DNA of 63,919 nucleotides, the filler included, from Collodictyon triciliatum (taxonomy: Eukaryota): NCBI GenBank assembly GCA_043381765.1. It is 6 parts of 4 records of this genome, joined end to end, with 100 filler letters (N's around TTAATTAATTAA, not from the genome) between each part and the next. Parts side by side here need not be neighbours in the genome. Positions count along the whole stretch, not along the records: positions 33,704 to 53,001 come from JBHJMP010000906.1; 5 more parts are not named here. One strand, given 5' to 3'. The translations under genes were made by a program, and so were the position numbers. This document shows, one piece after another, positions 52,476-52,868 of this stretch. Position 1 is the stretch's first letter. Every line of letters starts with the position of its first letter. A model generated the notes under the pieces. That model was not told where the DNA came from. It searched no databases and saw nothing but the letters and a program-made list of their open reading frames with translations.

Positions 52476-52867
52476 TTAAAGAGAGGTGTAGGCATTTTTT
52501 TTTTTTAAGGATTGAAAGAACTTTGTTGAGTATATTTTTATCGTTGTTAAAGTCCCTTGTCATGAATATACTTAGTTTGCTTTCTGAACGATTGCATTCT
52601 TTACATATGAGACATCTACACTTTTTTTTTTTGAGTTTCCTTTCAGTGTCATATATTCTAGTTCTTTTTCGCTGTTAAAACACATCTTGGAGGTTCTAAA
52701 TTCATCTACAATAAATGTTTCAAAACGTTTGGATAGTATTTTTCGTAATCTTCTTCCGGTTCTTGCCATAAAATGGTTCATTAGACATTCTCTGCTCCAG
52801 TCTCTATACGCCAGTACAACATCTTTGCCAAATGTCTTTTCGATTCGGTCCATAAACAATTGTTCAC

Positions 52868-52868
<1 letters not shown>
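52476..52868 (-). pseudogene. Fanzor1-like (TnpB-derived) RNA-guided nuclease, C-terminal RuvC/zinc-finger fragment, frameshifted
   Basis: First frame: SEQLFMDRIEKTFGKDVVLAYRDWS..LRKILSKRFETFIVDEFRTSKMC. After a shift in an A11 run (52622-52632): RCLICKEC..IFMTRDFNNDKNIL..*. Confidence 0.82.

Follow-up and report, generated by a model that had tools for sequence, protein, structure and literature searches.

Fanzor1 proteins descend from TnpB; they are eukaryotic, are borne on transposons and act as omegaRNA-guided RuvC DNA endonucleases. According to passages of Saito et al (PMC10432273), SpuFz1 and others were demonstrated to be omegaRNA-guided RuvC endonucleases carried on transposons, with the metal ligands of SpuFz1 given as D383, N385, E541 and D606. 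As far as extracts of two further studies go, Fanzors are defined by a DPG motif at RuvC-I together with a glutamate six residues upstream of the zinc finger (Yoon et al, PMC10711439), and the canonical RuvC-II glutamate is replaced by glycine or proline, an alternative glutamate being essential (Jiang et al, PMC10530073). SpuFz1 of Spizellomyces punctatus (8GKH), PpFz1 of Parasitella parasitica (9CF0) and GtFz1 of Guillardia theta (9CER) have the same C-terminal layout of RuvC-II, zinc finger and RuvC-III as the locus described here. The RuvC D-E-D nuclease is shared more widely, with the prokaryotic TnpB proteins (IS200/IS605 and IS607) and with Fanzor2, as are the zinc finger and the 3′ position of the guide RNA, and the relocation of the glutamate is, in the portions of two of these papers that deal with it, common to some TnpBs and Fanzor2 (PMC10711439, PMC10530073). 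Unlike TnpB and Fanzor2, the relatives of the present locus are long, at about 600–650 residues, and its genomic setting is eukaryotic.

The locus lies in the genome assembly of Collodictyon triciliatum (GCA_043381765.1), in a stretch of DNA of 63,919 nucleotides, filler included, which was analysed whole and is referred to as the window. It encodes the last ~145 residues of a Fanzor1 nuclease, corresponding to residues ~500 to ~642 in the numbering of P0156, an intact protein of 648 residues that is the closest full-length relative and is about 60–70% identical to the remnant. The coding sequence is split between two frames of the minus strand. Frame A (52623–52868, minus strand), which matches P0156 residues 500–580, begins with the helix that precedes the GDWS site, which reads AYRDWS in this copy, and goes on through the alternative RuvC-II glutamate (DEFRTSK) to the first half of the zinc finger (CFNS). 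Frame B (52435–52620, minus strand) matches residues ~582–642 of the 648 (579–642 in the alignment with P0156) and holds the second half of the finger, with its CxxC kept, the RuvC-III aspartate (TRDFN) and the C-terminal tail. The shift from frame A to frame B takes place at a run of eleven A (52622–52632, minus strand), and both frames, joined at this run, read as an earlier note on this DNA had quoted them. That note had placed the remnant at 52476–52868; its 5′ edge at 52868 stands, but the homology reaches about 40 nt further in the 3′ direction, to 52435. The note's list of defects was also incomplete, having overlooked an in-frame TAG (52471–52473, minus strand) inside frame B at a position that is glutamine in intact P0156, with the homology going on past it. 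A second homopolymer, a run of twelve A (52495–52506, minus strand), lies in a lysine-rich stretch of frame B. A second frameshift at this run into the third frame was considered and rejected; the third frame gave no profile match at E ≤ 10 and no BLASTP match to P0156, and the tail therefore runs on in frame B through the TAG. Alignment of P0156 with the window gives 49/81 and 38/65 identities, in order, across both the A11 run and the TAG. The same relatives align in order with both frames, as with residues 475–558 and then 563–600 of P0006, a full-length relative of 634 residues that is 48% identical to frame A.

The family assignment was made from several directions. A search of 1,835,955,588 representative proteins with frame A alone (83 aa) returned 356 matches at E ≤ 1e-3, 25 of them at E ≤ 1e-10, the best being P0001 (E = 7.6e-20, 58% identity). 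This exhaustive search succeeded where a word-seeded one, aimed at longer proteins and run with the same 83 residues, had confirmed none of 22 candidates. Against the PDB, frame A matches the Parasitella parasitica Fanzor1 (9CF0) with E = 3.9e-7, followed by SpuFz1 as a weak second at E = 1, a value that reflects the distance of the remnant's subfamily from the solved Fanzor1 proteins; frame B alone gave no meaningful PDB match. At E ≤ 1, P0006 has three PDB matches only, SpuFz1 (9e-37, over the whole length), PpFz1 (7e-34) and GtFz1 (7e-16), and P0156 likewise matches only chains of these three proteins, the E values for the two relatives spanning roughly 1e-16 to 1e-37. No TnpB or Fanzor2 chain appeared among the PDB matches of frame A (E ≤ 10) or of P0006 (E ≤ 1). 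In the reverse direction, the window was searched by tblastn with 154 relatives, and each of the 180 alignments at E ≤ 1e-3 fell on the remnant. A profile of the C-terminal domains, made with 149 relatives, was run over the window in six frames, 3,668 pieces in total; it gave E = 1.6e-29 for frame A, E = 4.6e-9 for frame B and E = 1.3 for the piece ranked next. Judged by these sequence comparisons, the match of both frames to Fanzor1 relatives is far beyond chance. The earlier note had taken the locus for a Fanzor1-like nuclease remnant, and this assignment holds. Pfam was less informative. Neither fragment was assigned to a family, the only match being F-box-like_2 at E = 0.089, below its cut-off, and P0156 was not assigned to one either; PF07282 (Cas12f1-like TNB, formerly the OrfB zinc ribbon) was weakly present on 6 of 10 full-length relatives and reached the cut-off on one. 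In the protein database, precomputed assignments place 79 of 81 full-length relatives, P0006 and P0156 included, in PF26935.1.

An intact member of the subfamily is a protein of about 650 residues with the RuvC-I DPG motif near residue 370, a glycine at the former RuvC-II glutamate site (GDWS), the relocated catalytic glutamate six residues before a CxxC…CxxC finger and, beyond the finger, the RuvC-III aspartate (RDxN). The sequence for its guide RNA would overlap the end of the ORF and extend a little beyond it, and such a relative would be expected to cut DNA as a transposon-borne omegaRNA-guided RuvC endonuclease. The relatives do carry DPGK at RuvC-I. Within the part covered by the window, the glutamate of the DE(F/Y)(R/K)TS motif aligns with E541 of SpuFz1 and the aspartate of the RD motif (TRDFN in the window) with D606, both among the metal ligands in the passage of Saito et al cited above (PMC10432273); in the alignment of P0006, SpuFz1 structure numbering was corrected by an offset of 394 for the fusion tag. 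The window keeps the alternative glutamate, in DEFRTSKMC, with glutamate, six residues and then cysteine, the spacing that appears in an extract of Yoon et al (PMC10711439), and it also keeps the RuvC-III aspartate of the RDxN motif. The relocated glutamate, zinc finger and RuvC-III motif were thus recognised correctly in the earlier note, as was the GDWS-type motif, which it called typical of Fanzor1, since GDWS or GNWS sits at the old glutamate site in SpuFz1, PpFz1 and the relatives. A glycine at this site, DE(F/Y)(R/K)TS and RD are common to the solved Fanzor1 proteins and the subfamily of the remnant.

In the window copy itself some of these motifs are damaged. The old RuvC-II glutamate site is arginine (AYRDWS), where relatives and sister copies have glycine. 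The CxxC…CxxC finger has three of its four ligands, the second cysteine of the first pair being replaced by serine (CFNS, as against CCxC in the family); the missing ligand is a defect of this copy, and the layout of the finger is that of the family. Of 39 columns that are invariant in the P0006 clade, 27 are kept, one is not covered in the window and 11 (of 38 covered) are changed, G496R, C538F and C540S among them. The window copy is also short. It is without the WED, REC and RuvC-I parts, and nowhere in the window was there a match to P0156 residues 1–499 or to the N-terminal parts of 154 relatives. The homology starts at base 52868, directly beside an (AAT)n microsatellite (52869–52962), which is followed after 38 nt by a contig join (53002–53101, consisting of 44 N, TTAATTAATTAA and 44 N); the 38 nt show no Fanzor similarity. 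The picture of a decayed copy drawn earlier, with G to R in GDWS, one finger cysteine lost, a frameshift and a 5′ end cut at the (AAT)n tract beside the contig join, is borne out. One catalytic motif and all RNA- and DNA-binding domains are missing, the frame is broken by a shift and an early stop, and conserved sites are substituted. The fragment can therefore neither fold as a nuclease nor cleave DNA; it is inert and does nothing now. Very probably it is a pseudogene, left from the 3′ part of a Fanzor1 gene that has decayed.

Some of this damage lies where assemblies are least reliable. The frameshift sits in a long homopolymer, a classic site of sequencing error, and the 5′ part is lost exactly where a microsatellite and a contig join lie, so that the truncation could in part be an effect of the assembly or of an intron that holds the microsatellite. 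It might then be argued that the living organism has a complete or almost complete gene, the frameshift being a homopolymer error and the front half lying beyond the assembly break or beyond an (AAT)n intron. Runs of at least ten A or T are frequent in this DNA, with 38 in 61.6 kb, the A12 run has another length in a near-identical metagenome contig, and the homology begins right after an AG beside the microsatellite, 133 nt from the contig join; introns are possible in Fanzor genes, going by a portion of Jiang et al (PMC10530073). The in-frame TAG at 52471–52473, however, lies outside any homopolymer, the substituted invariant positions include the GDWS glycine and a zinc ligand, sister copies keep the consensus residue at 16 of the 25 residues that differ, and neither the 38 nt past the microsatellite nor the next contig has any similarity to Fanzor. 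On this evidence an intact gene is very unlikely, and decay in the genome itself remains the preferred reading. The window as a whole contains, besides its 38 runs of A or T of at least ten, many microsatellites, for example (AAT)n and (CAATAA)n, and homopolymer-linked frameshifts in this assembly therefore need care.

The remnant does not stand alone. P0155, a protein of 68 residues from an NCBI-sourced contig of 539 bp, is 79% identical to frame A, keeps the glycine and extends upstream of the break in the window. P0021, P0001 and P0002 are further short relatives and are apparently damaged too. Six sequencing runs from six studies, all lake or freshwater metagenomes, are listed as containing the stretch, with shares of 0.08–0.17; none of the runs listed is an RNA run. 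Four of the six were compared with the window. They contain contigs identical or nearly identical to the flanks at 51458–52077, 52205–52356 and 52404–52553, and over 52502–52859 only diverged copies, with 11–21 differences per ~90–175 nt; no identical contig over 52554–52860, the A11 run included, was found in these four runs. The lake metagenomes contain better-kept copies that are ~85–93% identical to the window. One near-identical contig, at a depth of 2.7, has 13 instead of 12 bases in the homopolymer at 52495–52506, a difference due either to polymorphism in the length of the run or to an error of sequencing.

The differences between the copies bear on how the window copy came to its present state. 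Of 40 differences listed out of 51, 33 were used, four in the tail and three inside the A run being dropped. They fall on codon positions 1, 2 and 3 as 10, 13 and 10, and 8 are synonymous and 25 non-synonymous; divergence among the copies looks neutral. Sixteen of the 25 non-synonymous differences give the residue of P0156, five move away from it and four do neither, so the window copy is more decayed than its sisters, one of which carries a stop of its own. The remnant marks a multi-copy Fanzor1 subfamily with better-kept copies elsewhere, and we infer that these other copies belong to the same organism as the window. The window copy itself, we infer, arose by transposition and then decayed neutrally. 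A repeat search of 48731–53001 found families of microsatellite type only, and no terminal inverted repeats.

The giant-virus and metagenome relatives (L001–L237) have a strongly conserved RNA-like element at the 3′ end that overlaps the end of the ORF, for example at L001:3376–3505 and L020:2679–2822. It ends in a near-invariant GGTGTAAA, after which conservation collapses; in a comparison of 116 distinct 3′ ends, taken from 159 loci, the sharp stop comes ~75–110 nt after the stop codon, and 10 of 12 predicted pairs show compensatory changes. This pattern of sequence conservation suggests that the element is probably the guide-RNA scaffold of these relatives and the right end of the transposable element. 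At the remnant, hairpins are predicted over the ORF tail and the 3′ flank (52358–52472, minus strand), the site where an omegaRNA scaffold would be expected. The predicted fold has z = −3.37, with 0 of 200 shuffles folding as well, and diverged metagenome copies still align with the window down to 52371, from which a guide scaffold specific to the subfamily appears possible at the 3′ end of the remnant. The scaffold of the relatives was not detected there. A covariance model (R1) built from 44 giant-virus relatives gave 28 matches at E ≤ 10 over the whole window and none at the remnant, where a local search scored at best 1.5 bits on the correct strand; blastn of the remnant's 3′ flank against the loci of 159 relatives gave nothing below E = 0.27; and at the remnant Rfam returned no match and ARAGORN no tRNA. 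The same fold could be taken as a sign that the fragment has been put to a new use, its 3′ part as a structured RNA or the fragment as a small protein, the more so as a 209-codon ORF on the same strand has its start codon ~375 nt downstream. The fragment is not spanned by any open frame, however, the differences between the copies show no excess at third positions, and the 3′ part matches neither Rfam nor the relatives' guide-RNA model, so that such reuse is scarcely credible, and the reading as an inert pseudogene is retained. The 209-codon ORF (51431–52057, minus strand) has no Pfam family and no usable Atlas match.

The surroundings of the remnant are those of a eukaryotic genome, with split eukaryotic genes around it. 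Five identical linkers (44 N, TTAATTAATTAA, 44 N) lie at 24374–24473, 30204–30303, 33604–33703, 53002–53101 and 61280–61379; they show that the window strings together separate contigs, and sequences on either side of a linker are not to be taken as adjacent. The remnant is at the end of its contig, and the next contig begins inside a gene of SNF2 type, an SNF2/Brahma-type chromatin remodeller (53412–55137, plus strand) that starts mid-gene at the contig edge. An exon of this gene at about 53432–53464 encodes QAQDRAHRIGQ, which we take to be SNF2 helicase motif VI, and the SnAC domain of the SNF2 ATPase follows at 54081–54371 (plus strand, Pfam E = 1.1e-13). A likely bromodomain exon is also present in the gene. 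SNF2 motifs are absent from the remnant's own contig, so that this contig and the next may lie apart in the genome. Other split eukaryotic genes in the window include an RLI/ABCE1 Fer4 domain, a protein kinase, a kelch protein, a glycosyltransferase and an endonuclease of LINE type. The ORF at 5962–6780 (minus strand) matches the endonuclease/exonuclease/phosphatase domain (E = 3.4e-17) in a form typical of LINE retrotransposons, and the ORF beside it at 5013–5696 has no Pfam match. At 22392–23597 (plus strand) there is an open frame of 402 residues with an FG-GAP repeat match and a G+C content of 0.50, compared with about 0.35 nearby.

The nearest full-length sister clades of the remnant's subfamily are carried by giant viruses. 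In JGI metagenomes 527 of 597 pattern matches are relatives of P0006, and in IMG/VR 264 of 281 pattern matches encode such relatives, many of them on contigs labelled as giant-virus MAGs; a search of IMG/VR with the subfamily alignment found relatives encoded at 275 of 382 matches. One giant-virus record of 289 kb that carries a relative has two NCLDV capsid matches, the better at E = 5e-54. The P0006-like giant-virus clade (L001–L237) comprises the nearest large full-length clades, at 44–50% identity and with the same order of motifs. Its copies are intact, ~590–650 residues long, with the conserved 3′ RNA element that went undetected beside the window copy. A quick tree built from 150 C-terminal domains puts the remnant beside P0001 (SH-aLRT 95) and places it weakly (SH-aLRT 71) in a group of 19 rows with the P0006 clade, which holds a giant-virus MAG copy; its placement rests on about 120 residues.

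It might be asked, then, whether the fragment is a relic of a giant virus, through integration of a viral segment or through a jump into the host by a Fanzor element that the virus carried, as opposed to a long-resident cellular transposon. The abundance of full-length relatives on giant-virus contigs, the record with NCLDV capsid matches and the grouping of the remnant with the P0006 clade would all fit such an origin, and there is a precedent in Chlamydomonas, where a passage of a preprint describes a Fanzor fragment in the chromosome that shares 80% identity with a Fanzor1 borne by a virus (bioRxiv 10.1101/2024.09.03.611062). Set against this, the best IMG/VR match to P0156, the closest full-length relative of the remnant, is only 38–47% identical, and exact-word patterns of P0156 found no relatives in IMG/VR. 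The neighbouring ORFs are ordinary split eukaryotic genes (kinase, kelch, glycosyltransferase), and the support in the tree is weak and comes from about 120 residues. A viral origin is therefore considered unlikely, though less so than an intact gene.

Partial copies of this kind have been described before. Partial Fz genes and "ghost" elements occur in S. punctatus according to a passage of Saito et al (PMC10432273), and in Chlamydomonas the section seen of the preprint places the chromosomal Fanzor fragment beside virus-borne Fanzor1 elements (bioRxiv 10.1101/2024.09.03.611062). As far as these extracts describe them, the remnant resembles the S. punctatus and Chlamydomonas copies in being a truncated, non-autonomous Fanzor1 leftover that sits in a chromosome of a eukaryote, while less damaged copies exist elsewhere and giant viruses carry relatives. 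Unlike them, it belongs to another organism and another subfamily, and neither a viral counterpart nor element ends were found here. In comparison with the solved Fanzor1 proteins the window offers only the last ~145 residues, and these broken, and no RuvC-I, WED or REC part, guide-RNA match or transposon ends were found in it. The family of the remnant may already figure in the host tables of Fanzor surveys (PMC10432273, PMC10530073).

Taken alone the remnant is of little import, as dead partial Fanzor copies are expected wherever the family was active. As a marker it indicates that this freshwater eukaryote has hosted a Fanzor1 subfamily with an intact relative of 648 residues in public metagenome data. 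It is conceivable, though for now doubtful, that the remnant is the trace of a distinct and still active Fanzor1 subfamily, comprising P0156 and the lake copies, in a freshwater eukaryote or its virus. If this were so, a subfamily sister to a very large giant-virus clade would point to the exchange of nuclease elements between giant viruses and the host lineage, and intact members of the subfamily would be new programmable nucleases. Recovery of intact copies together with their guide RNA from the full genome would yield a further candidate for a compact genome editor, and a further instance of elements shared by viruses and their hosts.
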